DNA of 64,000 bases from Actinomycetota bacterium (lineage in GTDB: Bacteria > Actinomycetota > Aquicultoria > CAJVYJ01 > JAUVQD01), in NCBI GenBank assembly GCA_030679975.1, contig JAUXSL010000027.1, positions 11,447 through 75,446 on the forward strand, read 5' to 3'. The translations under genes were made by a program, and so were the position numbers. The stretch's first letter is position 1. The number at the start of each line of letters is the position of its first letter. The notes beneath the pieces were generated by a model. That model saw only the letters and a list, made by a program, of their open reading frames with translations. It was not told the DNA's origin and did not search any database. Shown here piece after piece: positions 23,790-41,565 of this stretch.

Positions 23790-24868
23790 GACTCAAAGAC
23801 CAGTGGTTGATTCGGCAAAGCGGAGGCTTGCTTCTGAGCTTCCTGAAGATCGGCTTTGACCATCATTTTGACCAGCTCGGGAAAAGCGATCTTAGGGCTC
23901 CAGCCAAGCCGTTTCTTGGCTTTGGCGGCATCCCCTTGAAGAATTTCGACTTCTGTCGGTCTAAAATAGCGCGGGTCTATCTCGATTATCGCTTCTCCGG
24001 TCCGGCTATTCAGGCCTTTTTGGCTGACCCCGCTGCCTTGCCAGACTAGATTGATGCCAACTTCCCTAAAAGCCTCTTCGCAGAATTCCTTGACCGAATG
24101 GGTCTTGCCGGTAGCTATGATGTAATCGTCCGGGTTGTCTTGCTGTAGCATCAACCACATTGCTTCAACATAATCCGGGGCGTAACCCCAGTCCCTCCTG
24201 GCGTTTAGGTTGCCAAGAAACAATTTTTTCTGCAGGCCGAGTGTTATACGAGCGGCGCTCATTGTGATCTTGCGGGTGACAAAGGTTTCGCCTCTGAGGG
24301 GGGACTCATGGTTAAACAGTATCCCATTATTGGCGTGGATGCCGTAGGCCTCCCGGTAGTTGACCGTTATCCAGTAGCTGTACAGCTTGGCCACGCCATA
24401 AGGGCTTCTGGGGTAAAAAGGTGTTTTTTCAGTTTGCGGAATCTCTTCTGTTTTACCATAGAGTTCGCTGGTAGCCGCATTATAGAAACGGGTCTTGGCG
24501 CACATCCCCAATATGCGCAAAGCCTCCAGCAAGCGCAGAGTGCCCAGGCCGTCCGCATTGGCGGTATATTCAGGGGACTCAAAAGAAACTTGAACGTGGC
24601 TCTGGGCCGCCAGATGGTATATCTCATCCGGCCGAGTTTCTTGAATGAGCCGGATTATGTTAGTGGAGTCCGTCACGTCGCCATAATGTAACAAAAAGTT
24701 TGGGTGCCCATCATGGGGGTCTTTATATAAATGGTCGATTCGCTGAGTGTTAAACGAAGAAGATCGTCTTTTAATGCCGTGGACCAGGTAATCTTTATTT
24801 AACAAGAATTCAGCCAGATAAGCCCCGTCTTGTCCCGTTGCGCCGGTTATTAAAGCTGTTCTACGCAT
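23786..24868 (-). CDS. gmd: GDP-mannose 4,6-dehydratase
   Basis: [21 protein letters not shown] near the N-terminus, and SELYG and [11 protein letters not shown] motifs. Start refined to the ATG at 24868. Confidence 0.9.
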
Positions 24869-24963
24869 GTGCCTCTTTCCCCTAAATAGAGCGTGTACCA
24901 CTGTTCATCATACGAACAACGATAATCGTCAGATATGCCAGCGTCAAGGTTGTCGGGGCATCT

Positions 24964-25686
24964 TCATTTTTTGCTCACAAACGCCATACCCGGCAGCCCT
25001 AATAGTTGCCATTGTACGTGCGACACAGTCGCTCTCTGGGTTTCCAGCAGCTCCTGGAGTGATTGCCAAGGACCGATATTGTAAGCTGACGGTGTTTGAA
25101 AGAGAACGTCGTGCGCCAAGAGGCCAGAGCCGGAAGGCAGCCGAGCCCACAGAGAGAGATCGCGCCTGGTGGATTGTCGCGAATGGTCACCGTCAATGTA
25201 GAGCAAAATTGGGCTTGAAATTCCTTCTAGTAGTCGGCCGGCGGTTTCAAATCCATCTCCGACAAATTGCTCCACCTTGGTTTTAGCAAGATATCGGCCC
25301 CTGGCCGCTCCGGGAAATTCAGGATGATTTGCATCCATTGAATCCACTGTGCATACTCGACAATCCCGCAGACCCAAGGCTTCTTTGACTTCCCAAAAGA
25401 GGCGAGCGGATTTACCATGATGAGTGCCCCATTCAACAATCAAGCAAGGCTGAACGAATGCTACAGCGGCAGCCATCAGCATCTGCTCGTTTAAAGGGTA
25501 GGGATGGGCGCCGATATTCGGGATTACTCTTTCCAGTAATAGTTCGCTAAGTTTCCAGCAATCGACCTCAAAAATTGAGCCGTTCTTAACGATATCGTTT
25601 TCTAAGTCGTCTTTAACGACATCGTTCCTATTATCGTATTTTTTTGCTTTAACGAAATTGAATGGATTATGGAAAAAGCATACCAC
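24964..25686 (-). CDS. Class I SAM-dependent methyltransferase (TylF/MycF/CmcI-like); candidate glycan chain-terminating O-methyltransferase
   Basis: LLYIDGDHS and surrounding fold resemble Methyltransf_24-type O-methyltransferases. It is adjacent to wzm/wzt. Confidence 0.5.
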   Translation of the reverse strand: MVCFFHNPFNFVKAKKYDNRNDVVKDDLENDIVKNGSIFEVDCWKLSELLLERVIPNIGAHPYPLNEQMLMAAAVAFVQPCLIVEWGTHHGKSARLFWEVKEALGLRDCRVCTVDSMDANHPEFPGAARGRYLAKTKVEQFVGDGFETAGRLLEGISSPILLYIDGDHSRQSTRRDLSLWARLPSGSGLLAHDVLFQTPSAYNIGPWQSLQELLETQRATVSHVQWQLLGLPGMAFVSKK

Positions 25687-25798
25687 CTCCGTTTATGATG
25701 GTATCGCTTAGCTGGGAGTTATGCAAATTAATAGATAACGAGCGACAGGCATATTGTTCCCTGTGCTGAGCGGACGCCCGTTTGTTGGGGGAGATAAG

Positions 25799-27202
25799 TC
25801 AAGTGGATGCCGCGACCTGCGTAGTTAAGCTTGAGCCGGTCTGTGATCGACTGGCGGCCAACCCCAGCAGGAACCAGAGTGCTTTTTGTGGCATGGTGCT
25901 AAGAAAGAAGCCCGCGACCAAAAACCCGATAATGCCGATCATCAGCATCGAACAATCGACGGCCAGGTCTTGTTTTAACAGGCCGGCGTAAGCCCACCGC
26001 GCCCGACTCAATTCGAGGAGGCTTAAGCCGAGCAGCCCAACAAACGCCGCCAAGCCAATGATGCCGGTCTCGACGGCTGTTTCGATGTAAGTGTTATGCG
26101 CTACCATCGCCTTGACATTGCCCAGGTTAATCCACGGCATGTAGGAAGCGTATTTATAAAAGGCAAATTTGTAGTTTTGGATGCCCACTCCGAGCACTGG
26201 ATGATCGAGCCATATGCGCCAAGCGGTCTGCCAAATATCCAACCGACCCGACCCTCCGCTAACCAGGATCGAGCTTAGGGAAAACCGTGGATCCAAGAGT
26301 GCCAGGAAGACGCCGCTGAGGGTAACTACAAAAAACAAGATCCTCAGGCGCTTCTTGAGTAACGGTTCGACGAAGCCGTTCCGAGACAGAAAAAAGAACA
26401 TGACGACAACAGCGACCATGGCTCCGCGAGACAAGTTCGCCAATGTACCGATAAGCAGCAAGAAGAAGACTGTCCAGTACAACGATCTCTTATTTCCCTG
26501 GTTTCCGTTGACGAAAGCGAAAGCCAAGGGGATAAGGATCAGGATATTTAAAGCCGAGTAATTAGGGTCCATAGAGACACCGATGGCTCGGTTGGCGCCG
26601 CCGAGGATAAATTGGAAGACACCGATGAGCGCTGCCGGTATACCGGCTAAAGTTAAAATAAGCAGAGTGTTCTTAAACGTGGCTTCGTCATGAGTAAGAT
26701 CGACGACCATAAAGTAGAGGACAACCAGTTGTATCATAGTTATCAGTCTGTCCACGCCGACGGCCGGGTATTGCGCTTGGGTGATGGATAGAGCTGAAAC
26801 GGCGAGAAATAGCATTAAGACCAGGCCGGCCTTGTTTCGGGGGTTTATGAAAACCTGCCGGGTCCGCGCGAGTCTAATAAACCAGGAAAAAAAAGCGACG
26901 ACGCCGATAAGCTTGAATGAGGAAAAATCGCTGTTAAGCGAAGCGAGACTCTCAAACGGCAACCAGGCGGCGATCATGTAGAGCCCCAGCTTAGGGTTGG
27001 GAAGCACCAAAAAGGCCAATATCGGTAAGACTGAAACACCAAGACCGATTCTCGGATTAAAGGCTACTACGGCGCCGAGGCCTAGCCCAAAGACGGCCAC
27101 CACCAGCGTGATCAGCCAATTTCGATCGAGGAGCCGATTAAGTTGGCGAGAGGGTAGGGCCGCTTCCATGTTAAAGTGCGGCCCCTTGGCCGACAGTTTC
27201 AT
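25799..27202 (-). CDS. Wzy_C / O-antigen ligase family polytopic membrane protein
   Basis: About 12 transmembrane helices. A large periplasmic loop with HNTYIETAVETG matches the Wzy_C ligase/polymerase motif region. Confidence 0.75.
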   Translation of the reverse strand: MKLSAKGPHFNMEAALPSRQLNRLLDRNWLITLVVAVFGLGLGAVVAFNPRIGLGVSVLPILAFLVLPNPKLGLYMIAAWLPFESLASLNSDFSSFKLIGVVAFFSWFIRLARTRQVFINPRNKAGLVLMLFLAVSALSITQAQYPAVGVDRLITMIQLVVLYFMVVDLTHDEATFKNTLLILTLAGIPAALIGVFQFILGGANRAIGVSMDPNYSALNILILIPLAFAFVNGNQGNKRSLYWTVFFLLLIGTLANLSRGAMVAVVVMFFFLSRNGFVEPLLKKRLRILFFVVTLSGVFLALLDPRFSLSSILVSGGSGRLDIWQTAWRIWLDHPVLGVGIQNYKFAFYKYASYMPWINLGNVKAMVAHNTYIETAVETGIIGLAAFVGLLGLSLLELSRARWAYAGLLKQDLAVDCSMLMIGIIGFLVAGFFLSTMPQKALWFLLGLAASRSQTGSSLTTQVAAST

Positions 27203-28028
27203 AAGCGATAGCCAGGCCGCATCCGGCGATGAGCGCGGCTAAGGCGGCGAAGATCAAGTTCGCGGTGATGTTGGGCGATGCCGGCGTGGTTGGTCTAACC
27301 GCGGCGGTCAGGATCTTGGTGCGCGGCCCTTCTTCGAGATTGTTCATCAATGTCTGCTCTTGGGCCAATAGTGACTGCTCGCGATCGACCAAGAGCAGTT
27401 TTTGATCGATTAGCCGCGGCCGCTGCTCCTCTAATGCCGCCAGCCTTTGGTTTAGAGCAAAGACGATTATCGCTTTTTCCGAGGCCGGAATATCCTTGTT
27501 TTCAGCTTGCGCCAGCTCTTTTTTGGCCGCCCGTATCTCACCATCTATATGGGTGGTGTCCAGCAACGGTTGTTTGATCTTGGATTTGCCGGAGTTTTGC
27601 TTGTACAGGATCTCGTCAAGCCATTTAAGCGTTGCGCGCGTTATACGCAGTTGAGCGGCTGTTTTCTCGGCCTCGGGATCGACTGTCTTGGCATAGGCAA
27701 TAAATCTTTGTGCCGCTAGGTTGGCTATTTTATGTACAGAAGTTTTGTCGGGCGCGCTGACGGTTATGGCTATGATGTTGGACCCGGTGGCGTTTTCCGC
27801 GTGAACCATTTTCTTCAGTTCCAAAACGCTATATTTGAACTTGCCCTTATTAATGACTTCAGTCAGCAGGGTATCGCTAACGATTACCTCATTTAAGGCT
27901 GTCGGTGTATTAAAGACGCCGAGGGCGACCGGGCTGAGCATGACAGTCGAGGATGCCTCGTAAGTAATCTGCCGGATATTGATAAGTCCGGTGGTCATCA
28001 TAGTCACGACCATAAAAAAAGCAATCAA
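27171..28028 (-). CDS. Wzz-like polysaccharide co-polymerase (chain-length determinant)
   Basis: N-terminal transmembrane helix, a long coiled-coil periplasmic region and a C-terminal transmembrane helix (LIFAALAALIAGCGLAIAY). Confidence 0.6.
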   Translation of the reverse strand: MIAFFMVVTMMTTGLINIRQITYEASSTVMLSPVALGVFNTPTALNEVIVSDTLLTEVINKGKFKYSVLELKKMVHAENATGSNIIAITVSAPDKTSVHKIANLAAQRFIAYAKTVDPEAEKTAAQLRITRATLKWLDEILYKQNSGKSKIKQPLLDTTHIDGEIRAAKKELAQAENKDIPASEKAIIVFALNQRLAALEEQRPRLIDQKLLLVDREQSLLAQEQTLMNNLEEGPRTKILTAAVRPTTPASPNITANLIFAALAALIAGCGLAIAYETVGQGAAL

Positions 28029-28186
28029 CCACTTTCTCCGACCGATGGAGTCGAGATACTCAGTTAATTCGAAGGGTTTTTCAGCCGGATCGATCCGGTC
28101 AAGCCGAATCTCTGTTTTACCGCTTATAGCTATCTCTCCCAGCCAAATAGTTGTAATCGGCAGTATAATATCATAATTGCCGCCTG

Positions 28187-29320
28187 CTATTTTACCGCTA
28201 TCGGCCGCTCTATGGCGACGGCCAGCGTCCTACATACATAGGTGACTTGCTTCTCACTCAATTGCGGGTACATCGGTAGGGATAAAACTTCTGTCGTTGC
28301 TAGTTCGCTTTGTGGATATGCTCCGGCGACCAGCCCTAAGTCAGCGTAGGCGGGTTGCAGATGGATGGGGAGCGGGTAATGAACGGCACTGTCGATGCCG
28401 CGATTCGCCAGTCTCTCCCTGATCGGGTCTCGCTCTTTGACGCGAATTGTATACTGGTGCCAGACATGTGTTCGGTTAGCGCCGGTTGCCGGTCGTTTGA
28501 CGCCCGGCAGTTCCGACAACAATGTATCATATAGGCCCGCACGCGAGCGCCGGGCCGCCGTCCAATTTTCGAGGCGCTTAAGTTTGGTTCTGACTACGGC
28601 GGCCTGCAGTTCGTCCAAGCGGCTGTTATATCCGATTTCTTCATGGTAATACTTCCGGCTGCTGCCGTGAGCTCTGAGCCGGCGGATTCGGCCGGCCGTT
28701 TCTTCGTCGTCGGTGACGATCATCCCACCGTCGCCGGCGCCGCCCAGATTTTTGCTGGGGAAGAAGCTTAGGCAGCCAATATTGCCGATCGATCCGACCC
28801 GTTTGTCCTTGTATTCGGCGCCGATAGCTTGGGCGCAATCTTCGACTACAGCGAGCTTGTATTTTCCGGCCAAGGTCATGATCTCAGCCATATCGGCCGG
28901 TTGTCCGTATAAGTGGACGGGCAAGATCGCGCGGGTGCGCGGGGTGATTTTAGCTTCGATCTGCCCGACATCCAAATTGTATGTCGCCGGATCGATATCG
29001 ACGAAGACAGGCACGGCGCCGCAATAAGATATAGCTTCGACGGTAGCGATAAAAGTAAACGGCGTAGTGATGACTTCGTCGCCGGGTCCAACACCTAAAG
29101 CACGCAAAGCCAGGTGCAGGGCGTCTGTTCCCGATGCGACCCCGACCGCGAAGCGGGCGCCGCAAAAGGCGGCGATCTCATCTTCCAGAGCGGCTACATT
29201 GGGGCCAAGGATAAACCTGCCGTCGGCCAGGGTTTGGTTAACGGCTGCCGTCAGTTCGTCTTTTATCTCTAAATACTGGGCCTTAAGATCAACGACGGGT
29301 ATCATCAATCGCTTAACCAC
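28187..29320 (-). CDS. DegT/DnrJ/EryC1-family PLP-dependent sugar aminotransferase (WbpE-like)
   Basis: N-terminal VDLKAQYLEIKDEL. A conserved lysine region (SFFPSKNLGGAGDGG). 377 aa. Confidence 0.85.
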   Translation of the reverse strand: MVKRLMIPVVDLKAQYLEIKDELTAAVNQTLADGRFILGPNVAALEDEIAAFCGARFAVGVASGTDALHLALRALGVGPGDEVITTPFTFIATVEAISYCGAVPVFVDIDPATYNLDVGQIEAKITPRTRAILPVHLYGQPADMAEIMTLAGKYKLAVVEDCAQAIGAEYKDKRVGSIGNIGCLSFFPSKNLGGAGDGGMIVTDDEETAGRIRRLRAHGSSRKYYHEEIGYNSRLDELQAAVVRTKLKRLENWTAARRSRAGLYDTLLSELPGVKRPATGANRTHVWHQYTIRVKERDPIRERLANRGIDSAVHYPLPIHLQPAYADLGLVAGAYPQSELATTEVLSLPMYPQLSEKQVTYVCRTLAVAIERPIAVK

Positions 29321-29797
29321 TCGTCCTGCGGCACATCGCGGATTATGCGGGCCGGGATACCCATGACCAGTTTGGCGTCCGGGACATCCTTAGTCACTAC
29401 CGAACCGGCAGCGACAAAAGCTTCGCGGCCGATAGTGATGCCCGGCAAAAGGAGCGAGGCGCCGCCGATGCGGGCGCCGCAAAAGGCGGCGATCTCATCT
29501 TCAAGAGCGGCTACATTGGGGCCAAGGATAAACCTTCCGTCGGCCAGAACTTGGTTAACGACTGCCGTCAGTTCGTCTTTTATTTCTAAATACTGGGCCT
29601 TAAGATCAACAACAGGTAGCATTAGCTGCTTAACCACTCGTCCTCCGGCACATCGCGGATTATACGGGCCGGGATACCCATGACCAGTTTGCCGTCGGGA
29701 ACATCCTTAGTTACTACCGAGCCGGCGGCGACAAAAGCTTCGCGACCGATAGTGATGCCCGGCAAAAGGAGCGAGGCGCCGCCGATGCGGGCGCCGC
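29153..29797. repeat. Tandem duplication of two 317-bp units, about 95% identical, bounded by 11-bp GCGGGCGCCGC microhomologies
   Basis: The GCGGGCGCCGC motif occurs at 29153-29163, 29470-29480 and 29787-29797. Each unit is the degT 5' end, the intergenic spacer, and the acetyltransferase 3' end. Confidence 0.85.
29305..29637 (-). pseudogene. Chimeric in-frame ORF created by the duplication: DegT N-terminus fused to acetyltransferase C-terminus
   Basis: Residues 1-56 are near-identical to the DegT N-terminus (MVKQLMLPVVDLKAQYLEIKDELTA...FCGAR). Residues 57-110 are near-identical to the acetyltransferase C-terminus (IGGASLLLPGITIGREAFVAAGSVV...). The junction is GAR, encoded by the microhomology. 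Confidence 0.5.
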
Positions 29798-30368
29798 GTT
29801 TAACGTGGGCGCCCTTGATCTTATTAAAACGATTGACGCCGCGTCCCATGGCATTGTCGTTAGTGGTTGTCACCATGGGCGCGATAAAGACGCGTTCCTC
29901 TAAGACAACATAAGCGGTGATGTAGGCGCCCGTCTGAATCTTAGTATATGAGCCGACTGAAACGTCGTTTTCAATAGTGACCCGACAGCCGATCATCACA
30001 AAATCGCTGATGTGACATCGCTCGCGCACAACGGCCAGATCGCCGATTAAGGTTGAGGTTCCGATGGTCGATCCGGCAAAAACGATGGCGCCGGAGCCGA
30101 TGATGCAATTGTCGCCGACAATTAGGGAAAGCGGATCGGCGCTGATTTTTACGGTACTTGTCGGTCCGGGGCGGGATTTTCTGCCTATAACTGCGTTATC
30201 GCCGATCACGACATTTTTTCCAATCGTGGTGCCGGCATGCACGACAACATTATTGCCGATTGTCACACCGGCGCCAATCCTGGCGTCCTCTGCCACGGCC
30301 GCATTTTTTCCAAGGATGATATCAGTCAACCACAATCTCCTTGAGATCGATAGGTCGGCCGTTTTCAT
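29622..30368 (-). CDS. Hexapeptide-repeat sugar N-acetyltransferase (WbpD/PglD-like)
   Basis: Left-handed beta-helix repeats (IGAGVTIGNNVVVHAGTTIGKNVVIGDNAVIG). The C-terminal LLLPGITIGREAFVAAGSVV is typical of UDP-amino-sugar acetyltransferases. Confidence 0.8.
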   Translation of the reverse strand: MKTADLSISRRLWLTDIILGKNAAVAEDARIGAGVTIGNNVVVHAGTTIGKNVVIGDNAVIGRKSRPGPTSTVKISADPLSLIVGDNCIIGSGAIVFAGSTIGTSTLIGDLAVVRERCHISDFVMIGCRVTIENDVSVGSYTKIQTGAYITAYVVLEERVFIAPMVTTTNDNAMGRGVNRFNKIKGAHVKRGARIGGASLLLPGITIGREAFVAAGSVVTKDVPDGKLVMGIPARIIRDVPEDEWLSS

Positions 30369-31404
30369 TGAGTGAGGCCTGGGCCGCTTGCAGAATTCTC
30401 AGTACATCGAGGCCATTTTGTCCGTCGGTAAGCGGACGACGACCGGTCCGGACGCAATCCAGAAAATGGTTGCATTCTAAGGCTAATGGTTCTTGCATTT
30501 TAATGCTGGGTATTAATATGTCGCCAAAGCGTAAGGTCAGGTCATCACCATATTTTTTATAGCCGGCCGACAAATCAGCCCCTTTGTCATAAAGGCGGAC
30601 TTTTTCCGAGCTTTCCATATCGTCGAAGACGACCATCTTCTTGCTGCCGACAACAGTGAATTTTCGGGTTTTGTGCGGGTCCAGCCAGCTGACATGTGAG
30701 TGGGTCGCGATTCCGCCTTCAAAAACGATGGTGACAAAGACAACATCTTGCACGCCCGGCCTCAGGCAGCACTGCCCAACAGCTGCGACGCTGAGCGGCT
30801 GTTTGCCGATTAAGTGGAGGGCGACGGCGACATCATGGGGCGCCAGGCTCCAGAGGGCGTTCTCGTCTTTTCGCACGGTGCCCAGGTTCAGGCGTTGAGA
30901 GTATAGATAGTAGACATCGCCTATATCTTGTTTGTCGATCAAAGACTTAATTAGTGTAATAGCCGGGTGGTACATCAGCAGGTGACCGACCATGAGTATC
31001 CGGTCGAAGCGGTCGGCGAGGTCTATCAGAGTCTGCGCCTCGCGAATATCCAGCGTAATCGGTTTTTCCACAAAGACATGCTTTCCGGCTTTGAGCGCCG
31101 CCTCGGCGTGCTTAAAGTGCATCGGCGCGGGCGAGGCTACGACCACGGCGTCGATCTCATCATCAAGAAATACTTCCGATATGTCGGCGGTAGTCCTTGT
31201 TTCCGGATACCGACTTGCCAGGGCTTCCAATCGAGCTATGGCCAGGTCGCAGACTGTCGTTAAATTGGATTCGGGTAGCTCGGCGAACTTGCGCACCAGG
31301 TTTTGGCCCCACCGGCCGGCGCCGATTACAGCTACATTGACAGGCTTGATTGGCTTCTTGTCGACCGGAGTCAGTTGCGCCGGCGGATCTTTTGTCATAT
31401 CCAC
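30322..31404 (-). CDS. Gfo/Idh/MocA-family NAD-dependent oxidoreductase (WbpB-like)
   Basis: N-terminal VAVIGAGRWGQNLVRKF Rossmann fold, and an EKPI motif. Confidence 0.8.
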   Translation of the reverse strand: MDMTKDPPAQLTPVDKKPIKPVNVAVIGAGRWGQNLVRKFAELPESNLTTVCDLAIARLEALASRYPETRTTADISEVFLDDEIDAVVVASPAPMHFKHAEAALKAGKHVFVEKPITLDIREAQTLIDLADRFDRILMVGHLLMYHPAITLIKSLIDKQDIGDVYYLYSQRLNLGTVRKDENALWSLAPHDVAVALHLIGKQPLSVAAVGQCCLRPGVQDVVFVTIVFEGGIATHSHVSWLDPHKTRKFTVVGSKKMVVFDDMESSEKVRLYDKGADLSAGYKKYGDDLTLRFGDILIPSIKMQEPLALECNHFLDCVRTGRRPLTDGQNGLDVLRILQAAQASLNENGRPIDLKEIVVD

Positions 31405-31407
31405 ATT

Positions 31408-32760
31408 CTACAACCCCACAATGTTCGGTCCGGCGAAAGCGGCGAAAGCGTTTCGGGTATCTATAATTAATTTGGAGCGTTTTGCCAGCTCTTCATAAGG
31501 ATAAGCGCTGTGGTCGGCGCAGAGTACGATGCAATCGAAGGACTCAATTGCTAAACTTTCCAGTATTTGTGAAGCGTAGCTGTCCGAGCCTAACGTCACG
31601 GATGGGATAAACGGGTCGCTGTAGATTACCTTCGCTTGAGCTCCAATCAAGAGCTCCATGATCTCTAGGCCGGGGGACATGCGGGCGTCGTCTATATCTT
31701 TCTTATACGCTACCCCCAAAATCAGGATTTTTGCCCCTCGCAGGCATTTACCGGCCTGATTTAGCGCTTTGTTGATCTTTTCCATAACAAACAAGGGCAT
31801 CTGCAGATTGACCTCGCCCGCCAATTCTATGAATCGGGTATGGAAGTCATACTGCCTGGCCTTCCAGGTCAGATAGAAAGGGTCGACCGGTATGCAATGT
31901 CCGCCGACCCCCGGCCCGGGGTAGAAGCTCATCATACCAAAAGGCTTGGTTGCCGCCGCGTCGACGACTTCCCAAACACTAATGCCCATCTTATCGCAGA
32001 GCAGTGCGAGTTCATTGACGAGGGCTATATTGACCGCTCGAAATGTGTTTTCAAAGACCTTGGTCATCTCCGCGACTTTTGGCGAGCTGACGGGCACGAT
32101 GGTCATGATCGTCTGCGAGTAAAGAGCGGTCGCGGTCTTTAGGCAGTTCTCGGTTACGCCTCCGACGACCTTGGAAATATTTTTTGTGGTAAACCGTTTA
32201 TTGCCCGGATCGACTCTTTCCGGTGAAAAAGCCAGGAAATAATCGACGCCGATTTCAAGGCCGCTCGCGGCCAGGATGGGCAAAACCACTTCTTCGGTCG
32301 TCCCGGGGAAGGTTGTGCTTTCCAAGACCACCATTTGTCCGGGGCGCAGGTATTGAGCGATCTCCTTGGTGGTTGAGATGATGTAGGAGATATCGGGGTC
32401 GCGGGCCGCGTCAAGCGGCGTCGGCACGCAGATTATGATGACATCGGCCTTGGCCAGCACCGAGTAATCATCGGTCGCCCTGATCTTCCCTGTCGCCACG
32501 AGCTCGGCCAGCTCTTTATCTTCGACGTCGGAAATATAATTTTGGCCGGCGTTTATCATCTCCATCCGCTCGACCTTTTGCTCGATGCCGATGACCGTAA
32601 AGCCGACTTTAGCTTTCTCCACCGCCAAGGGCAGGCCGACATAGCCCATACCGATGACGACGATGACGGCTGTTCGGGCGCTTATCTTTTCTTCAAGCGC
32701 CAGAATAGGTGGTGACGGCGCTTCTCTTAAAGCCAATTTCTCCTCGATGGGTCGATACAA
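31408..32760 (-). CDS. UDP-N-acetyl-D-glucosamine/mannosamine 6-dehydrogenase (WbpA/WecC-like)
   Basis: N-terminal VIGMGYVGLPLAV. Catalytic region GGHCIPVDP. 450 aa. Confidence 0.85.
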   Translation of the reverse strand: MYRPIEEKLALREAPSPPILALEEKISARTAVIVVIGMGYVGLPLAVEKAKVGFTVIGIEQKVERMEMINAGQNYISDVEDKELAELVATGKIRATDDYSVLAKADVIIICVPTPLDAARDPDISYIISTTKEIAQYLRPGQMVVLESTTFPGTTEEVVLPILAASGLEIGVDYFLAFSPERVDPGNKRFTTKNISKVVGGVTENCLKTATALYSQTIMTIVPVSSPKVAEMTKVFENTFRAVNIALVNELALLCDKMGISVWEVVDAAATKPFGMMSFYPGPGVGGHCIPVDPFYLTWKARQYDFHTRFIELAGEVNLQMPLFVMEKINKALNQAGKCLRGAKILILGVAYKKDIDDARMSPGLEIMELLIGAQAKVIYSDPFIPSVTLGSDSYASQILESLAIESFDCIVLCADHSAYPYEELAKRSKLIIDTRNAFAAFAGPNIVGL

Positions 32761-32928
32761 CCAGCGTCCCTGAAAGCTAGGAAGTCCTTATAGACCGACC
32801 AGAATACTACCAGACTCATCTTGGCTTTCCAAGGAGACCGTTTGGAGTTTTTGTCGATTTTCTTGGACCTTTAGATAATTTTTAGTACAATCAAAGTCGT
32901 TTTAATCGCGAGTGGCTTGAGGTAGCAA

Positions 32929-34962
32929 ATGGCAAAAAAACAAGTTGTAAGAAAGCCGGGCGTGAAAAGGCCTGTCGCAAGCACGGCGGCCGGCGGGCCA
33001 AAAGAAGTCATATCGTCATATGATAAGTGGATAATGTGGCTGGTCTGCGCGATTTTGATAGCGGTGCCGCTTATCTTTTCGCGCATATCCTATGACCAAT
33101 TTGATTTAGTGAAGTTAGCGGTATTTAAGGTTTTGGTCTTAGGTATCGTGGTTATCTGGGTAGCTAAGATGCTCACAAAGCCCGAGCCGATTAGTTGGAG
33201 TTGGCGGGAAGGTTTGCTGGCGGCGTTTGTCCTCGTGGCCATCATTTCAACTTTTACCTCGATACACATCCCAACGTCGCTGCACGGCAAATATAAGAGA
33301 TATGAAGGTCTTTTGACTTTCATTACCTATATAACCGCGTATTTTGTTGTAACTCAGACATTTAAAGGTAAGAACTGGCTAAGGATAATAGTCGAGGTCG
33401 TAAGCATCACCGGCGGGATTGTCGCTCTTTACGGTATTTTGCAGTTTATCGGCTTTGACCCCATTTATTGGGGCAGTGTGCCCTTCGAGGAACGGCGGAG
33501 TTTCTCCACTTTTGGTAATCCGGACCTATTGGCCGGTTATCTGGTTTTGGCTTTCCCTTGCGCGCTGGCGGCTTACTTTAACAAGGGCAAGATAGCTTGG
33601 TTGCACGGAGTGTCGGCGTTCGTTCTAGCCTCGGGCCTTTTGACGGCTTTGACCCGGGGTGGTTGGTTGGGGGCGCTTGTCAGTGTGATCTGCATCGGCG
33701 TGCTTTTGGGCCGGCGCCTGAAGCTCTATTGGAAGAAAGTCCTCGTCCTGATCGTGCCTGTTGCCATTGTCTTGTTCGCATTAGTGATTTATTCATCGGC
33801 CATTAATTTAGATATAGTCTCCAAGTTTCAAGGGGCTTTCCAGCTTAACAGCGGCACGGCTCTGGGCCGCTTTGAAATTTGGAAGGCCGGTTGGCGGATG
33901 GTGAAGGACAGACCGTTATTCGGGCAGGGTTTGGATACCTACCGTTTAGCGTCTGAGCATTTTGAAACTAAACGATATGTCCAGTCGGTAGCAGGAACAA
34001 CTGTCTCAGATAACGCCCATAATTACTTTATTCAACTGGCGGCCGGCGGCGGCCCGATGGCGGCTCTATTGCTGTATGGGTTTTTTATCGCTTGGATAGT
34101 CAGGGCTTTAAGAATCAGACGCCGGCTGGCTGATGATAGCGAGTATCTCTTGGTAAGCTGTATCATCGCCGCCGTGATCGGTTATTTAGCGACCATGCTT
34201 GTGGGGATCAGCATCGTCGGCGCGACTTCGACTTTTTGGCTGTTGATGGGGTGTGTAACCGGATTCACGCTAAAACTTGACCCGGCCTGTCGATTCCTGG
34301 ACCTATCGAAGCGGTGGCAGGAGGCTAAGCTGGCGGCGGCGGCGGCGGCGGTAGTGGTTGTAACCGTGGTTATCGCCGGCTTTGCCGTGGCCATGTATCT
34401 TGGCGATGTCTATTTGATCAAGGGTCTGCGGTCTGCCGCCGGTGGGCAAGAGCAGCTGGCCCTGGGCAATCTTAATACGGCTATTTCGCTGTATCCGGGG
34501 AACGGGCGGATAATGTCTGAGTTGGGGCAGGCTTATATGCGCTGGGCAAGCGGGGCGGTGCAACAAAGAGATAAAAAAACCTTTACATATAGTTCACAGA
34601 AAGCTATTGAATCTTTTCGCCGTGCCAGTTTGGCGGAGCCGCCGGAAGTCGATTATCGTGTCTTTTTGGCCAATTCGTATAGTTATGTCGGTCAGACTCA
34701 AGAGGCTTTTAAGATATTAGATGAGATACTTCTTAAGCAACGGCCCTACTCCCTTCCGGCCAATCTTCTCTATGGCCAACTCTTAACGGATGAGAAGAGA
34801 AAAGCTGAGGCGGTAAAGTATTACAAAACAGCATTATCGCTAGCGTCCGCGACGCAACCGGCTCTATCCGCGCTGGCCGATTATTACAAAGAAATCGGCA
34901 ACAGAGGCAAAGCGGACTATTACCAGAAGCAATTGGACAAGGTCAACGCCGCGCCTCAGTGA
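32929..34962 (+). CDS. Wzy_C (O-antigen ligase family) membrane domain fused to C-terminal TPR repeats; candidate O-oligosaccharyltransferase
   Basis: About 12 transmembrane helices. The periplasmic-loop motif HNYFIQLAAGGGPMAA matches the Wzy_C family. Residues from about 480 to 677 form TPR-like helical repeats. SD GAGGTAG lies before the ATG. Confidence 0.75.
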   Translation: MAKKQVVRKPGVKRPVASTAAGGPKEVISSYDKWIMWLVCAILIAVPLIFSRISYDQFDLVKLAVFKVLVLGIVVIWVAKMLTKPEPISWSWREGLLAAFVLVAIISTFTSIHIPTSLHGKYKRYEGLLTFITYITAYFVVTQTFKGKNWLRIIVEVVSITGGIVALYGILQFIGFDPIYWGSVPFEERRSFSTFGNPDLLAGYLVLAFPCALAAYFNKGKIAWLHGVSAFVLASGLLTALTRGGWLGALVSVICIGVLLGRRLKLYWKKVLVLIVPVAIVLFALVIYSSAINLDIVSKFQGAFQLNSGTALGRFEIWKAGWRMVKDRPLFGQGLDTYRLASEHFETKRYVQSVAGTTVSDNAHNYFIQLAAGGGPMAALLLYGFFIAWIVRALRIRRRLADDSEYLLVSCIIAAVIGYLATMLVGISIVGATSTFWLLMGCVTGFTLKLDPACRFLDLSKRWQEAKLAAAAAAVVVVTVVIAGFAVAMYLGDVYLIKGLRSAAGGQEQLALGNLNTAISLYPGNGRIMSELGQAYMRWASGAVQQRDKKTFTYSSQKAIESFRRASLAEPPEVDYRVFLANSYSYVGQTQEAFKILDEILLKQRPYSLPANLLYGQLLTDEKRKAEAVKYYKTALSLASATQPALSALADYYKEIGNRGKADYYQKQLDKVNAAPQ

Positions 34963-35039
34963 GCGCATAGAACCCTAGCTGCTTCAAAACAAGCCTTTTC
35001 TCCTGTATAATTACCGCACTTTAAATTTGAGGTGCGCAA

Positions 35040-35783
35040 ATGGCACGAAGTTCCGTCGTCACCGAATCCGAAGCTGTCGTCAGCCGGACGCATAAGAAAA
35101 AATATAGACCGTGGCCGAGTCGGGCCATTCTTGTTTTTCTGGCCGGGGGCTTAATAGTGCTCCTTGCAGTCGGTTACCTGGGATTCTTTGGCTCCACCGA
35201 AACGAAAACCAAAGCGGCGGCCGGCCGGCTCAAGCTTCAAGGCCAAAGACTATATCGGGCCAAGAAGTACGACCAGGCGGCAGATTTTCTCAACCGCTAT
35301 CTGGGATTGGCCCCCAAAGATCAGCGTACCCGGGAACTGTTGGCCCAGATTTATTGGCAGATAGGCGACGGCTGGCGGGCATTCGCTGAATTGAATATCG
35401 TTAATCGATCTTCCGCACCAAATGGAGATCGTTTTTACAGACTGGGCTTGCTCGCCGATCAGATGGGAAAAAGGGATGAATCGGTCGTTTTTCTCAAGAA
35501 AGCTGTCGCTTTAAAGCCGGAATCTATGCTCTTCCGGGTAGAATTGGCAAAATCGCTAACGAAGCTGGAACACTATGATGAGGCGGTCGTCCAGTGGCAG
35601 GAGGCGATCGACCGATTGCCGGACAAAGACCTCTATGCCGCTGTCATCTACGCGGAGCTCGGAGATGTTCTGCGCCTAAAAGGCGATATCGAAAAAGCTA
35701 AGGAGGCATATCGCCGGGGATTGGAGATCGAGCCGGGCAACGTCTACCTCCAGGCTCAGATAGCCGGCGCCGGCGGTCAATAA
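35040..35783 (+). CDS. Membrane-anchored TPR-repeat protein
   Basis: One N-terminal transmembrane helix (ILVFLAGGLIVLLAVGYLGFF) followed by 4-5 TPR repeats. Confidence 0.7.
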   Translation: MARSSVVTESEAVVSRTHKKKYRPWPSRAILVFLAGGLIVLLAVGYLGFFGSTETKTKAAAGRLKLQGQRLYRAKKYDQAADFLNRYLGLAPKDQRTRELLAQIYWQIGDGWRAFAELNIVNRSSAPNGDRFYRLGLLADQMGKRDESVVFLKKAVALKPESMLFRVELAKSLTKLEHYDEAVVQWQEAIDRLPDKDLYAAVIYAELGDVLRLKGDIEKAKEAYRRGLEIEPGNVYLQAQIAGAGGQ

Positions 35784-35786
35784 GGC

Positions 35787-38700
35787 GTGAGTAAAGCTTT
35801 ACAACGCTATAAAATCAGATTTTGGCCTCTTTTGATAACGCTGGTCTACCTTCTTATGGCCGGCGGCGCATCCGGCAAAGCCGGTGTCAATAAAGCTATC
35901 AGTGTGCCCGCGGAGACAGCCATTGTCTCGGTTAGCCACAATCGCCGCGCGGACAGCATCGGGGCTTTCGGTCTGACATCCGGCGAACTTAGTGGCATTG
36001 AGCTGGTATTGCGCCGGCCGGATGGTTGGTTTTGGGACCCGATTACTCTTGACTGGAAGCCGGAGGCGACCTGGCAAAAGAGCTCGTTGATACCAATGAG
36101 CCCGACGACTTTCGCTTGGGACGAGATTTTAGCCGCGCCTCCCTGCGACGGAGCCAGCCTTCTCCTATTAGCCAGGGCCGTAAGCCGCCAAGGTCAGCCG
36201 GACCCGAAGCCGGCGGGCGCGCGTATCTATATCGATAACATCAAGCCGGTCGTCACCAAGTTCGACGTCGAGGGCGCGCGTTGGTCGAATAGCCGCGAAG
36301 CGACGCTAAGCCTTGAAGCTTCCGGCGCTACCACGATACAATTAGCCGAATCCCGTCAAGGTCTAAGCGCCGCCAAGAATATCCGCTACCGCGACAAAAT
36401 CAAATTCCAGTTCTCCGAAGGAGACGGGCTAAAGACGCTTTACGGAGCGTTTTTAGATAGCGTCGGGAATCGGGTAGTGGTTCCCTTAAACGGCGGACCG
36501 ATCGGTTTGGATACGGCGTCGCCGGCCGTCAACCGGTTGGCGCCGCCCGCCGAGGCCCGATCTGTCAGTGTCGGCGCCAAGATCAGCGCCGGGTTTATCG
36601 ACGACAGCGATATCGATCCCTCCACCCTAAAGAGCGAATTTGGTCCCGACGCGACTTTTTATCTCACGCAAGGTAGTCGCTGGACGACCGCGACGGTCGC
36701 TTACGACCCCAAAAAAAAGACAGCGGTGCTCACACCGGCTGAGCCCTTGGTAAAAGGTCAAGTATACACAGCCCACCTAAAGCCGGGCATTAAAGATATT
36801 GCCGGCAATGAATTTGACGACGACATCTCATGGAGCTTTCAGGCTGTTGAGCCCAGCCCGCCGGAAACAAAGATTGACGGCTTGCCGGAAGTGATGTCGG
36901 GGAAGACCAAGGTCTTGATCGAAGGAAGCGCTCATGATCCGGACGGGGTCGGGGCGGTTTCGGTGTTTGTCCGTGACGGCGACGGCCATTATTGGGATTC
37001 AATTTCAGCTACCTGGACGGCGGAACCGTTTGCGAATGACGCTATGCTTGCCCGCAAGGGGCAAAAAGAGACCGGCTGGGAGTGGCGTTGGCCTTTGCCG
37101 AGCAGTGACGGAGCCCGTTTTGTCGTGACGGCGGCGGCAAAAGATCGCTTTCTGGCGGAAGACCCCACACCGGCCGGCACTTCTCTGTTGGTGGACAACC
37201 AGCCGCCGCAAGTCGAGCGTTTGATCTTACAGAACGATCTGCCGGTTACCGCTTCAGATACGATCACTATAACCAGTCTGGTTAAAGGGGCGACGCAAAT
37301 GAGATTCGCGGCCGACTCTGCCGCTCTTAAATTTCAACGGTGGCAGTCGTTTAGCGCTGAAACCAGTTTTACTTTGCCGAAAAAGGAAGGCCGAAAAGAA
37401 GTATTCGGGCAGTGGCGGGACGCGCTCGGCAATTATTCCCGAGTAGGGGAGGCTGGGAGCAAAGGTAGGATCATCTTAGATAAAAGCGGCCCTAAGGTTG
37501 CATCGACCTATCCCCACGATCAGGTTGAAAACGTAAATATCTCAGTGATGGTTACGGCCAATTTCGAAGAGATCAGCCTGGATGAAACCGGGATAACCAC
37601 CGATACATTCAAGCTAATCGGTCCCGACAAAAATCCGGTTCCGGCCGCGGTCACATTCGATCAGCTGTCAAAGACGGCTACGCTCACGCCCATTGAGTTC
37701 TTGCGATACGGGACCGGCTATAGAGTGATATTAAGCGGCGCCATCAAAGATCGGCTTGGTAACACCATCGGTCATGATTATGGCTGGACATTCAAGACGG
37801 TCGGGCTGTCGACGCATCCGCCGGCTCGTCCTCAAGGTTTGACGGTGGCGGCGGCGGAGCAAGGCGACAAGGTGTCGTGGTCGCCTCCTTTGGGAATCGA
37901 CAAGGGCAACGACTTCGACCCGCCCGTCCAGGGCGGCTACAACATTTATCGCGCCTCGTCTCCTGACGGACCGTTTGAGCTGGTAAACAAACTCCCCGTA
38001 ACGGCTTTGACTTACTACGACAAAGACTACGAACGGCCGGGCCGAAGGTTTTACATGGTCAAAGCGGTCGATGCCGGAGGCAGTGAAAGTGAAGGTTCGC
38101 CGGTCTCCGCCAATGATGATATAAACACGTTGATTAAAATCGCCCCCGGTAAGCCGGCCACCGTGACGCTCTCAAATGACGCCCTGAGACTGGAAGTGCC
38201 GAAGATCGAGCGACCGATGACGCTGCGCATCAAGACCAGGGAGGCGTTAGGCGCGCCGGCTACGCCGATGCGTCTCTTTCAGCTGGATTCAAGCCCGACC
38301 GTCAACCTTAAGACCTTGTCTTTAGTCTTGCCCGGAGACCCTATGGGGGCGACGATAATGCGGAGGGAAGAAGGCGGGTGGCAGCCACTGGCGGACGTGA
38401 CTTATTCGCGCGATCCGTTGACTCACATCGTCACAGTCGGGCCGGTCTCGTCAAGCGGACAATACTTAGTCGTCAATCGCGCGGACTTGACTCCGCCGCC
38501 GTCGGCCCCGGAAGTACATCTGTCAACGAGAGAGGGAAAGCCGCTTGTCGGTTGGTCCAAGATCAACGATCCGGACAGCGGCATCAGGGCCTACCGGCTG
38601 TGGCGCACGGAAACAACCATGACTTTCGAAACTTCGACGACCGCGGCCGCCGTCAATCTGCCGCCCGGCATGAACAGGTTCTTGGATAACAGCGCGGAGC

Positions 38701-40394
38701 CCGGCCACACCTATTACTATTGGGTCGCCGGTGTAAACGGCGCCGATTTGCCGAGTCCCATCGGGGGAGCGGATCCGACCGTCACGGCGCGCCCGATGGT
38801 GGAGCATCGGCCGCGTGTCGCCGGCGTCGTTAATTGTCAGTCATGTCATATTGAAAGACGGGTCCAAAGTGATATGGGGTTGATCGACTGCCGCCGCTGT
38901 CATGACGGGACCGGCAGCCTTGTCATCATTACCGGCTACGATAGCGGAAGTTCGCTCTGCCGGTCATGCCATGCGCTCAGCCGGGGACAGCTCAACCGGG
39001 CGGGCGGCTCGCAGATCGGGCGGTGCGGCGGTTGCCATACCAAGGGAGATTCACCGATCCTGGTTAGCGATAATGGTCACACCGGCCGCTCGGGACTGGA
39101 CTCAATGGTTTGCTCCAGCTGCCACAGCCTCCACCGACCGGGGGACAGTAAAAGCGGGTATTTGGTCGACCCGGCTAATACAAGGCGGTCTTGGTCGGGC
39201 TCTAAAAGCGATTTTTGCCTTGTCTGTCATCGCGCGACCGGCTGGCCGGAAGCGACCGAGACTTTGGAGAGGTTTGTGGCAAGGGACGTCATTTTTTCCA
39301 GCATGGAGAGCGCCCGGTTGTTTCCGGGGTGGTCAAAAACCGGTTGGAAACAGTCGGCGCATCAAAGAGTAGCCGGGTGTTTGACCTGCCATGAGCCGCA
39401 CAAGTCCCCGAACGCGCGGTTGGTCGCTTTTCGCGCCAAAGGGGGCAAGTATATCTACTTTTCGGAGTTTAGCGCTTCCGAAGCTCTTTGCTATGAATGC
39501 CACCGCCCCGGCGGCCCGAAGGGCGCGGTCGATTTATTGACGTTGTCGCGGTTGCCTTCGACCCATAGCGCCGGCACCTTCAGTGTCCACAGCGATGCTG
39601 AAACGGCGTCGCAGCTGGGCATATTAAACAGGCATGTAAATTGCAACGATTGTCATAATGTCCACGAATCGCAGAGGGAGAAGCGGGAACTCTTTTCCAA
39701 CAGGGTTTCCGGCGCTTTAAGGGGAGTACCCGGCGTTGAGCCGCTAAACGGCGGAGCGGGCTTGCCGCCGAGTTATACGGAGGTCTACGCCGCGGGGCGC
39801 GAGTACCAGATCTGCTTCAAGTGCCATTCTTCATATGTGAAGATGCCGCCGGCCGGCATGACCGATTACGCGATCAAGTTTAATCCGGCCAATTCTTCAT
39901 ACCATCCGGTGGAAACGAGGGGCAAAAACCGCGGGATAAAATCGGTGGCCTTTGTTAATGGTTGGAACCAGAAAGCGACAATGTATTGTTCCGATTGTCA
40001 CGCCAATCGGAAGGAGCCGGGTGTGGCCCGCGGGCCGCACGGGTCCAAGTTTAACCCTATGCTGGCCGGTGAGTTTGGCCCGCTTGCCGACGCCGGGCGC
40101 CAAGACGAGCTCTGCTACCAATGCCACAACCAAAAGACCTATAAGGAAGGTCGAGAAGGTAGCCGCTGGCAAGGTCCGGGCGGGCATGCCGACCACATAA
40201 GCAAGGACAAAATCGGGTGTTTTAAATGCCACGAAACCCATGGCAGCAGTTTTACCGACCATCTGATAAAGATTATGCAACCTCTTGAAGCTTCGGGGAC
40301 CACAGCTTTTTCACACGATTCGACCGGCGGCGGTTGCATAGCTACCTGTCACACGCGGCCGAATGACAGCTATCAATATAAACACGCGTATTAG
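35787..40394 (+). CDS. Large secreted multidomain protein: signal peptide, Ig-like (SbsA_Ig/Big-like) and FN3-like modules, and a C-terminal multihaem c-type cytochrome domain
   Basis: Hydrophobic N-terminus (PLLITLVYLLMAGGASG). Two SbsA_Ig-like modules, each ending in a ...AGNEF/...LGNTIGHDYGW pattern. Two FN3-like modules (YNIYRAS..., YRLWRTE...). Over the last 520 aa (nt about 38830-40394) there are 13 CxxCH motifs, many as CxxCHxxH, plus one CxxxCH. Confidence 0.8.
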   Translation: MSKALQRYKIRFWPLLITLVYLLMAGGASGKAGVNKAISVPAETAIVSVSHNRRADSIGAFGLTSGELSGIELVLRRPDGWFWDPITLDWKPEATWQKSSLIPMSPTTFAWDEILAAPPCDGASLLLLARAVSRQGQPDPKPAGARIYIDNIKPVVTKFDVEGARWSNSREATLSLEASGATTIQLAESRQGLSAAKNIRYRDKIKFQFSEGDGLKTLYGAFLDSVGNRVVVPLNGGPIGLDTASPAVNRLAPPAEARSVSVGAKISAGFIDDSDIDPSTLKSEFGPDATFYLTQGSRWTTATVAYDPKKKTAVLTPAEPLVKGQVYTAHLKPGIKDIAGNEFDDDISWSFQAVEPSPPETKIDGLPEVMSGKTKVLIEGSAHDPDGVGAVSVFVRDGDGHYWDSISATWTAEPFANDAMLARKGQKETGWEWRWPLPSSDGARFVVTAAAKDRFLAEDPTPAGTSLLVDNQPPQVERLILQNDLPVTASDTITITSLVKGATQMRFAADSAALKFQRWQSFSAETSFTLPKKEGRKEVFGQWRDALGNYSRVGEAGSKGRIILDKSGPKVASTYPHDQVENVNISVMVTANFEEISLDETGITTDTFKLIGPDKNPVPAAVTFDQLSKTATLTPIEFLRYGTGYRVILSGAIKDRLGNTIGHDYGWTFKTVGLSTHPPARPQGLTVAAAEQGDKVSWSPPLGIDKGNDFDPPVQGGYNIYRASSPDGPFELVNKLPVTALTYYDKDYERPGRRFYMVKAVDAGGSESEGSPVSANDDINTLIKIAPGKPATVTLSNDALRLEVPKIERPMTLRIKTREALGAPATPMRLFQLDSSPTVNLKTLSLVLPGDPMGATIMRREEGGWQPLADVTYSRDPLTHIVTVGPVSSSGQYLVVNRADLTPPPSAPEVHLSTREGKPLVGWSKINDPDSGIRAYRLWRTETTMTFETSTTAAAVNLPPGMNRFLDNSAEPGHTYYYWVAGVNGADLPSPIGGADPTVTARPMVEHRPRVAGVVNCQSCHIERRVQSDMGLIDCRRCHDGTGSLVIITGYDSGSSLCRSCHALSRGQLNRAGGSQIGRCGGCHTKGDSPILVSDNGHTGRSGLDSMVCSSCHSLHRPGDSKSGYLVDPANTRRSWSGSKSDFCLVCHRATGWPEATETLERFVARDVIFSSMESARLFPGWSKTGWKQSAHQRVAGCLTCHEPHKSPNARLVAFRAKGGKYIYFSEFSASEALCYECHRPGGPKGAVDLLTLSRLPSTHSAGTFSVHSDAETASQLGILNRHVNCNDCHNVHESQREKRELFSNRVSGALRGVPGVEPLNGGAGLPPSYTEVYAAGREYQICFKCHSSYVKMPPAGMTDYAIKFNPANSSYHPVETRGKNRGIKSVAFVNGWNQKATMYCSDCHANRKEPGVARGPHGSKFNPMLAGEFGPLADAGRQDELCYQCHNQKTYKEGREGSRWQGPGGHADHISKDKIGCFKCHETHGSSFTDHLIKIMQPLEASGTTAFSHDSTGGGCIATCHTRPNDSYQYKHAY

Positions 40395-40479
40395 GAGGGA
40401 AGTAAGGCGTCGATTATAATCTGGATACAGTCGGCCGGCGGTTGCCTTGCGAGCACTGTCACGAGATTAAGGGTTGTTA

Positions 40480-41565
40480 ATGTCGGATTGGGTCAGGAAA
40501 TCGCTTGAACAAATTGAGGCGTACCGCGCGGGCAGACGGGCCTCGGAGGTAAAAGGGGAGCTCGGCTTAAGCGACATAATTAAGTTGTCTTCCAATGAAT
40601 CGCCGTTTGCGCCGGTCAGACAGGCATCCAGGGCGATGGGTCAGGCCCTAAAGGGTCTCAACCGGTATCCGGACGGGGATTGCCGACTTCTCAAGAGCAA
40701 ACTGGCCGCCAATCTAGACGTGGCTTATGAAACATTGATGGTCGGCAACGGCTCTAACGAGCTCATTCGTTTGCTGGCGCAAGTCATTCTGGAGCCGGGC
40801 GATGAGGTCATAATGGCGGCCCCGTCTTTTGTCGTTTACCCGATCGTCACCGCCATCATGAGCGCGATGGCGGTAGAGGTGCCGCTCAAGGGGTTGGCGC
40901 ACGATTTGGACGCTATGGCCGCGGCGATCACGCCCAAGACCAAGCTGATATTTGTCTGCAACCCCAACAATCCGACCGGGACGGTCGTCCCCGCCGCCGA
41001 CTGCGGCGCTTTCTTGGAATCGGTCCCCGGGCATGTGCTGGTCTGCTTCGACGAAGCCTACCACGAGTTTGTCTCCGACTTCACTTATGGGACAGCTCTT
41101 GAGCTGCGCGGCAAGCATGAAAATATCATTGTGTTGCGAACATTTTCAAAGATTTACGGCCTGGCGGGCGCGCGCGTCGGATACGGGATGGCGCCGCCGG
41201 CGGTAGTGGAGGCGATAGACAAGGTTCGCGAACCGTTCAACGTCAACCTTCTCGGCCAGATCGGCGCTTATTACAGCCTTGACGGGCAACCGGAAATCCG
41301 CCGGCGGGCCGCTGTCAATCGGACGCAGCGGGAGCTGGTTGAATCGGCCCTGGACCGGCTTGGCTTGGAGCGAGCGGCGTCGCAGGCAAATTTTGTCTAT
41401 TTCGATCCGCGTATGCCGGCGGCTGAGGCGTTTGACAGGCTGGCGCGGCACGGCGTCATCGTCCGCGCGTTCAGGCACGGAGACCACATCCGGGCGACGC
41501 TCGGCAGCCCCAAGGATAACCTGGTGCTGATAAACGCTCTGGGGACGTTAAAGACGCCCCCGTAA
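40480..41565 (+). CDS. hisC: Histidinol-phosphate/aromatic aminotransferase (class II PLP aminotransferase)
   Basis: Conserved segments SSNESPFAP, KIYGLAGARVGY and NPNNPTG. The ATG at 40480 is preferred over the TTG at 40474, given an upstream AAGGG. Confidence 0.85.
   Translation: MSDWVRKSLEQIEAYRAGRRASEVKGELGLSDIIKLSSNESPFAPVRQASRAMGQALKGLNRYPDGDCRLLKSKLAANLDVAYETLMVGNGSNELIRLLAQVILEPGDEVIMAAPSFVVYPIVTAIMSAMAVEVPLKGLAHDLDAMAAAITPKTKLIFVCNPNNPTGTVVPAADCGAFLESVPGHVLVCFDEAYHEFVSDFTYGTALELRGKHENIIVLRTFSKIYGLAGARVGYGMAPPAVVEAIDKVREPFNVNLLGQIGAYYSLDGQPEIRRRAAVNRTQRELVESALDRLGLERAASQANFVYFDPRMPAAEAFDRLARHGVIVRAFRHGDHIRATLGSPKDNLVLINALGTLKTPP

Follow-up and report, generated by a model that had tools for sequence, protein, structure and literature searches.

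In this study, we analyzed a stretch of 64 kb (hereafter the window, whose positions serve as coordinates throughout) from a contig of the metagenome-assembled genome (MAG) listed at NCBI as "Actinomycetota bacterium", with the focus on a 317-bp tandem repeat at the junction of a left-handed beta-helix (LbH) acetyltransferase gene and a degT aminotransferase gene. Between these two genes the repeat places a short chimeric open reading frame (ORF) that joins the start of one to the end of the other. All genes of the region lie on the minus strand, and the operon runs from a nucleotide-sugar dehydrogenase through a Gfo/Idh/MocA oxidoreductase, the LbH acetyltransferase and the chimera to DegT; beyond DegT come genes for a protein of 285 aa and for one of Wzy type. 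Table 1 lists the features.

Table 1. Repeat units, junction sequences and genes of the region, in window positions.
Feature	Position	Strand	Description
DegT/WbpE-like aminotransferase	28187..29305	-	372 aa, ATG 29305, MDP1808322.1; Pfam PF01041 E=1.9e-133
Polymorphic patch in degT	28747..28778	-	4 synonymous differences from contig L050 in 32 nt
Microhomology copy 1, GCGGGCGCCGC	29153..29163		parental site inside degT, Gly-Ala-Arg codons of ...FCGAR
Unit U1	29153..29469		degT 5' end and acetyltransferase-type 3' end; unit carried by single-copy genomes
Chimeric ORF	29305..29637	-	110 aa from GTG 29637; NCBI MDP1808323.1
Microhomology copy 2	29470..29480		novel junction between the units
Unit U2, extra 317 bp	29470..29786		degT-type 5' end (chimera N-terminus) and annotated acetyltransferase 3' end
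LbH N-acetyltransferase (QdtC/WlbB-like)	29622..30368	-	248 aa, Pfam Hexapep E=2e-27
Microhomology copy 3	29787..29797		parental site inside the acetyltransferase gene (...KRGARIGG...)
Gfo/Idh/MocA oxidoreductase (WbpB-like)	30322..31398	-	MDP1808325.1; identical protein on Logan contigs L059 and L060
Nucleotide-sugar dehydrogenase (WbpA-like)	31408..32736	-	MDP1808326.1

The tandem structure, first proposed in a sequence-only reading of this DNA, was recovered by Tandem Repeats Finder at 29149-29797 (period 317, 2.0 copies, 92% matches, 0% indels, score 1130) and alike by a separate repeat search of the window. The two copies stand head to tail without a spacer and their join is seamless; the window holds no Ns anywhere, so there is no gap between U1 and U2. 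This pair is the sole long repeat in the window, and a 24-bp tandem repeat at 57307-57352 (1.9 copies, 86% identity) is unrelated to it. The boundaries are set by the 11-mer GCGGGCGCCGC, which has three exact copies in the 64 kb, starting at 29153, 29470 and 29787, the positions given in the sequence-only reading, and nowhere else. Its expected count was 0.19, and three copies were reached in 0 of 100 shuffles. Across the novel junction (29460-29490) the sequence reads CGCCGCCGAT, then the 11-mer, then AAAAGGCGGC. The exact homology at the join amounts to 11 nt, or to 15 nt if one mismatch is allowed, and the 31-mers that span the junction (starts 29451-29469) are found nowhere else in the window. 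Identity between the units was measured at 92.4-93.0%; 24 of the 317 positions differ (92.4%), which replaces the earlier estimate of about 95%. One of these, 29152 (A versus T), is a native difference of the two parental sites, leaving 23 differences between the copies as diagnostic sites, at 29186-29428 in U1 and 29503-29745 in U2.

Both parental genes are intact, in agreement with the sequence-only reading. DegT is full length, covering positions 3-359 of the 360 in the Pfam model, and matches WbpE structures at about E=1e-104 (3NU7, E=9e-105). The acetyltransferase has the same length as its homologue in the closest other lineage (contig L007) and matches the structures of QdtC (3FS8, E=3e-25) and of the acetyltransferase 3MQG (E=9e-20). 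The chimera consists of the N-terminal 51-56 aa of DegT (56 if counted from the GTG, 51 from the ATG) and the C-terminal 54 aa of the acetyltransferase (residues 195-248). Both genes translate the 11-mer as Gly-Ala-Arg, which keeps the join in frame, and the hybrid of 56 and 54 aa predicted earlier stands as an ORF. By homology, its start is likely the ATG at 29622, which would give 105 aa. Read from the sequence, the stop codon of the acetyltransferase shares bases with this ATG in TAATG, and that of the chimera with the DegT ATG in TGATG; both ends of the chimera thus repeat the native stop/start overlap of the parent junction. Pfam gave no DegT match in the chimera and only a Hexapep score of 20.8 bits, below the cut-off of 27. 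Neither the pyridoxal phosphate (PLP)-binding core of DegT nor most of the beta-helix is present; no parental catalytic domain is kept, as a functional DegT-acetyltransferase fusion enzyme would require.

The extra copy proved to be confined to the window contig. In the closest other lineage (L007, also represented by L055, L056 and L057, from three sources), with about 85% identity across the operon and the same gene order, and likewise in L008 and L053/L054, the acetyltransferase is directly followed by DegT in a single copy (for the closest lineage, in L007/L055/L057). The acetyltransferase site of L007 carries the same 11-mer, which is conserved in L053 too, and the degT site of L007 reads GCGGAACCCGC on the coding strand, matching at 9 of 11 positions. 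Assemblies of the same population gave a closer comparison. Against window 41398..29798, the 15.1-kb Logan contig L059 (SRR13727519) shows 5 mismatches in 11,619 nt, that is 99.96% identity outside the unit; it then crosses one single unit into degT, where 540 of 540 bases equal window 29480..28941, and it is U1-type at all 23 diagnostic sites. The Logan contig L060 (SRR29054610) is single-copy as well and U1-type at 22 of the 23. From the match pattern of L059, the window equals L059 plus a precise insertion of the 317-bp U2 unit. Accordingly, the acetyltransferase C-terminus is U2-type in the window and U1-type in the single-copy genomes, whose acetyltransferase ends in what the window shows as the C-terminus of the chimera. 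The comparison with closely related genomes that the sequence-only reading had proposed therefore finds single copies in all relatives and in both L059 and L060.

Searches at the protein level added no second occurrence. The chimera had no exact match in the contig index, and as a query against JGI metagenomes and GTDB representative genomes it found only the single-copy L007/L009 and distant acetyltransferases. The hypothetical U2-type DegT proteins, and the U1-type and U2-type acetyltransferases of 235 aa, had no exact match in the protein collection. No sister allele of DegT or the acetyltransferase at about 93% identity was found there, the closest being 79% and 81%. Known proteins also escaped these searches: the real DegT (P0241) was missed by the chimera search despite sharing exact stretches of 18 and 26 aa, and the window acetyltransferase (presumably MDP1808324.1) was unmatched in the protein collection under six tested start codons, so absence from these searches is no proof of absence. 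The cluster member P0244 (53 aa) proved to be unrelated, as its surroundings on an ENA contig of 2.9 Mb are a different, gene-sparse region. We found no paper mentioning the Sequence Read Archive (SRA) runs or the JGI sample.

The differences between the units have the look of differences between alleles. Outside the gene overlaps, U1 and U2 are separated by 13 synonymous and 6 nonsynonymous changes (dN/dS 0.15, dS 0.18), and the two are equidistant from L007 (identity 90.2% for U1 and 89.9% for U2). A non-functional duplicate that ages in place is expected to show faster, codon-blind change on the segments used by the chimera only. When changes were polarized with L007, 11 derived changes fell on chimera-only segments (5 nonsynonymous, 6 synonymous) and 9 on parental-gene segments (3 nonsynonymous, 6 synonymous), with 2 ambiguous; no asymmetry in rate or pattern was seen between the two classes (Fisher P=0.67). 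A test of the chimera branch against neutrality, under which 72% of changes should be nonsynonymous, was not significant (P=0.059). This symmetric and mostly synonymous pattern is what two alleles would give if each had evolved as a working gene, and U2 is best regarded, on the substitution pattern, as a pre-diverged functional allele and not as an aged copy. Since the divergence is allele-like and L059 is single-copy, the divergence predates the join and cannot date it. The earlier argument that the divergence speaks against a very recent event accordingly falls, given that L059 and L060 carry a single U1-type copy. In addition, the differences are unevenly placed: all 23 lie in the unit interior, and the outermost 33 and 52 nt of the unit are free of them (P ~0.0008 under uniform placement; P ~0.01 after a rough correction by hand for local conservation, which is not the output of a tool).

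Short polymorphic patches also occur in degT itself. The Logan contig L050 (SRR13727519) equals window 23836-28828 at 99.9%, with 5 mismatches, 4 of them in the patch near its end (Table 1) and 1 in the remaining 4.9 kb. In L060, all 35 mismatches fall in short patches at about 29008-29105, at about 28784-28816 and, in one case, in the Gfo/Idh/MocA gene (30889-31177), on a background that is otherwise identical; the densest patch holds up to 13 differences in 33 nt. These patches match neither L007, L053 nor L008. The contigs of SRR13727519 break inside degT, L059 ending at 28941 and L050 starting at 28828, and the 112-nt stretch between them (28829-28940) contains no repeated 31-mer, which suggests that several degT haplotypes exist within this sample. 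Judged from these alignments, short diverged imported patches are probably common here and the locus appears to be a recombination mosaic. U2 resembles such an imported patch, except that it stands in tandem with the resident sequence and has not taken its place.

ORFs of similar composition were found elsewhere. P0002 (153 aa; L001:1-3213, JGI 3300057055, and L002) combines a DegT N-terminus with the C-terminal part of an LbH acetyltransferase and a tail rich in Cys. A full degT lies 1.1 kb downstream, and the 5' part of P0002 is a duplicate, at 83% identity, of the 5' end of this gene; another partial copy (91.5%) stands at the contig start, and a PemK-toxin gene and a retropepsin-like gene lie between the copies. 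P0056 (163 aa; L003-L006:5001-5492, ENA) is a DegT-N::LbH-C ORF conserved across several samples, on 9 contigs. Two genes downstream, past an Acyl_transf_3 gene, follows a full degT whose 5' end has 78% nucleotide identity to the DegT part of P0056, and no full-length LbH acetyltransferase lies nearby. By their arrangement, P0002 and P0056 appear to be rearrangement scars whose geometry is unlike that of the window. A structural analogue of the window repeat, on an unrelated metagenome contig, is P0253 (515 aa; L058:548-1403, ENA ERZ27248730 k141_1021942), a degT with an internal in-frame tandem duplication of 429 bp (2.0 copies, 88% identity, no indels, dN/dS 0.39) and almost no junction homology, which would interrupt the PLP-binding core, yet the ORF is open. 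This case indicates that diverged tandem duplications, from whatever cause, are no rarity in metagenome contigs with genes of this family.

The operon around the repeat is predicted to be of the WbpA/B/D/E-like amino-sugar type within a surface-polysaccharide locus. The four enzyme families are clustered and co-oriented, and their order is repeated in L007 and L053. As in the WbpA/WbpB/WbpE/WbpD operon for UDP-2,3-diacetamido-2,3-dideoxy-uronic acid sugars, the four families share one operon beside Wzy-type genes; however, the window acetyltransferase is a QdtC-like protein of 248 aa and not the shorter WlbB/WbpD form.

The phenomenon is of known kinds, either a microhomology join with a fusion at the join point or a false duplication. 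It is established that duplications can have microhomology at their junctions and that tandem repeats are unstable (PMC11721125). Like microhomology-mediated (RecA-independent) tandem duplications with a join-point fusion, the window shows a short homology that recurs at the join and at either parental end, head-to-tail copies without a spacer, relatives in the single-copy state (L059 and L060 among them) and a hybrid ORF beside intact parents (PMC11721125). It differs from them in the 7% divergence of its copies, given that the extra unit is missing from a genome of 99.96% identity; the two units were therefore not identical at birth, and simple slippage on one chromosome cannot yield that. 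Homology-facilitated illegitimate recombination (HFIR) uses one homologous anchor and a microhomology of 3-10 bp (PMC6382021). The window unit likewise has a short, GC-rich microhomology at the join on one side and consists of diverged homologous DNA, and its other side cannot be told from the resident sequence, which is how a homologous anchor would look (PMC6382021). In contrast, the 11 bp of the window lie at or just above that range, though they were counted here as a microhomology join, and HFIR mostly brings foreign genes and not a second copy of the same junction. As to a donor, U2 is 93% identical to U1, with a dN/dS of 0.15 and an equal distance to the outgroup, and no genome that could have donated U2 was found.

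Taken together, the repeat looks like a recent strain variant or an assembly error and not like an old duplication that created a new gene. We favor, with moderate confidence, a recent, strain-specific illegitimate recombination at the microhomology that added a diverged allele in tandem, with the chimera as a by-product. U2 would then be a second, already diverged allele of the acetyltransferase/degT junction, set in tandem with the resident allele and joined at the GC-rich 11-mer, in a population whose polysaccharide locus may take up short diverged patches by recombination. In a one-step route, U2 DNA would enter by a homologous crossover on the acetyltransferase side and an illegitimate one at the 11-mer on the degT side, which is the geometry of HFIR; in a two-step route, a fresh slippage duplication would be followed by a short imported patch that overwrote the interior of one copy. 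Both enzymes would stay intact, and an ORF of 105-110 aa without either catalytic core, probably without function, would result. Because the TAATG and TGATG overlaps are kept, translational coupling into degT could continue, and the in-frame join together with these overlaps would avoid polarity on degT. The confinement of the differences to the unit interior is expected for an internal imported patch, and the short diverged patches among near-identical genomes support the import of an allele. Ectopic conversion from a paralogue was considered and rejected, since no other DegT or LbH acetyltransferase paralogue lies within the 64 kb.

Several points weigh against this reading. The evidence for the junction is one assembled contig, and L059 and L060, the sole independent assemblies of this population, do not have it. 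Moreover, L059 is unbroken through the 31-mers common to U1 and U2, from which the junction and U2 k-mers would be absent or rare in SRR13727519. U2 as a single-copy allele was found in no public assembly searched, so the proposed donor is hypothetical. The side of the homologous anchor is invisible, as the acetyltransferase flank is identical to that of L059. To our knowledge, no natural transformation or other route of DNA uptake is known for this uncultivated Actinomycetota lineage.

The possibility that comes next, which we hold to be serious though less probable than recombination, is an assembly artefact of the kind called false heterotype duplication, in which U1-type and U2-type strain haplotypes of a single-copy junction were placed head to tail. 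In a variant of it, one strain would carry a real, perfect and recent duplication, and the assembler's second pass would run through the bubble arm of the other strain, so that the duplication is real and its divergence artefactual. The sequence-only reading had raised a two-strain artefact, and this part of it has been strengthened by the single-copy state of the independent assemblies. The symmetric, allele-like divergence fits as well, the difference-free unit ends have the look of graph nodes shared by two haplotype arms, and the contig breaks and clusters of single-nucleotide differences reveal several degT haplotypes in SRR13727519. Only a few DegT homologues were looked at, and one of them, on the MEGAHIT-style contig L058, showed a second diverged tandem duplication. 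Against an artefact, a de Bruijn assembler needs an overlap of k-1 (at least 20 nt) to make a join. An exact overlap of 11 nt is too short for such an ordinary k-mer join, and the junction 31-mers are missing from the single-copy sequence, so a real molecule bearing the junction seems to be required; an origin of the junction in k-mer overlap was rejected on the same 11 nt and because single errors probably cannot yield the chain of junction k-mers. The adjacent placement of unusually divergent haplotypes is a documented assembly error, and the window resembles the described cases in the allele-like differences of its copies, in a local polymorphism above that of the surroundings and in the single copy of an independent assembly (PMC9516828). 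Those cases, however, come from diploid eukaryote assemblies and usually show a gap or a read-depth gap, whereas the join here is seamless at an 11-bp repeat, with no gap or N between the copies (PMC9516828). It also speaks against an artefact that the repeat is the only one of its kind in 64 kb and that, while U1 is seen as a single-copy allele in L059 and L060, no strain with U2 alone appeared in any public assembly searched. A chimera formed in vitro, by template switching at the GC-rich 11-mer during whole-genome or library amplification and then assembled, would likewise explain a junction at short GC-rich microhomology that independent assemblies lack. We consider it the least probable of the explanations, as such chimeras are individually rare and usually dropped as low-coverage edges, the sample gives no sign of amplification, and template switching by itself leaves a diverged unit with allele-like substitutions unexplained.

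An old tandem duplication that diverged in place (dS ~0.18) and was kept for a useful chimera, be it a small protein or a coupling bridge, would make the single-copy genomes products of recent deletion within the 52-nt identical unit end. A crossover in this difference-free end would indeed leave a pure U1, as seen, and the ORF is open with 0 indels in 317 bp, with the stop/start overlaps kept at both ends. The chimera-only changes (5 nonsynonymous to 6 synonymous, against 72% nonsynonymous under neutrality) lean the same way, though the selection test is not significant, and DegT-N::LbH-C chimeras exist in other lineages (P0002, and P0056 on 9 contigs). We nevertheless regard an old duplication as unlikely. 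The extra copy is present on this contig only, and its absence from L059, L060 and all relatives would demand long retention followed by one or more very recent losses, which is unparsimonious. Chimera-only segments evolve no faster than parental ones, and the product lacks the PLP-binding core and most of the beta-helix. Tandem repeats are, furthermore, unstable while their copies are still identical (PMC11721125), which speaks against long neutral persistence. A further step would be to see in the DegT-N::LbH-C chimera a small protein that was kept for its function, or a bridge that translational coupling cannot do without, as one of a recurrent class with P0002 and P0056, which lie upstream of full-length degT genes in unrelated polysaccharide loci; this seems to us very doubtful.

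These results carry two lessons for metagenome contigs: the divergence between the copies of a tandem repeat cannot be read as age, and an extra copy can be exposed as strain-specific or spurious by assemblies made independently from the same population, Logan contigs among them. MDP1808323.1 is best handled as an ORF that is probably non-functional or artefactual. If the recombination that we favor is real, the window would record a natural case in which diverged alleles of an uncultivated Actinomycetota population underwent illegitimate recombination, by a mechanism that is expected, leaving a 317-bp scar and a by-product ORF in a surface-polysaccharide operon with neither enzyme damaged.

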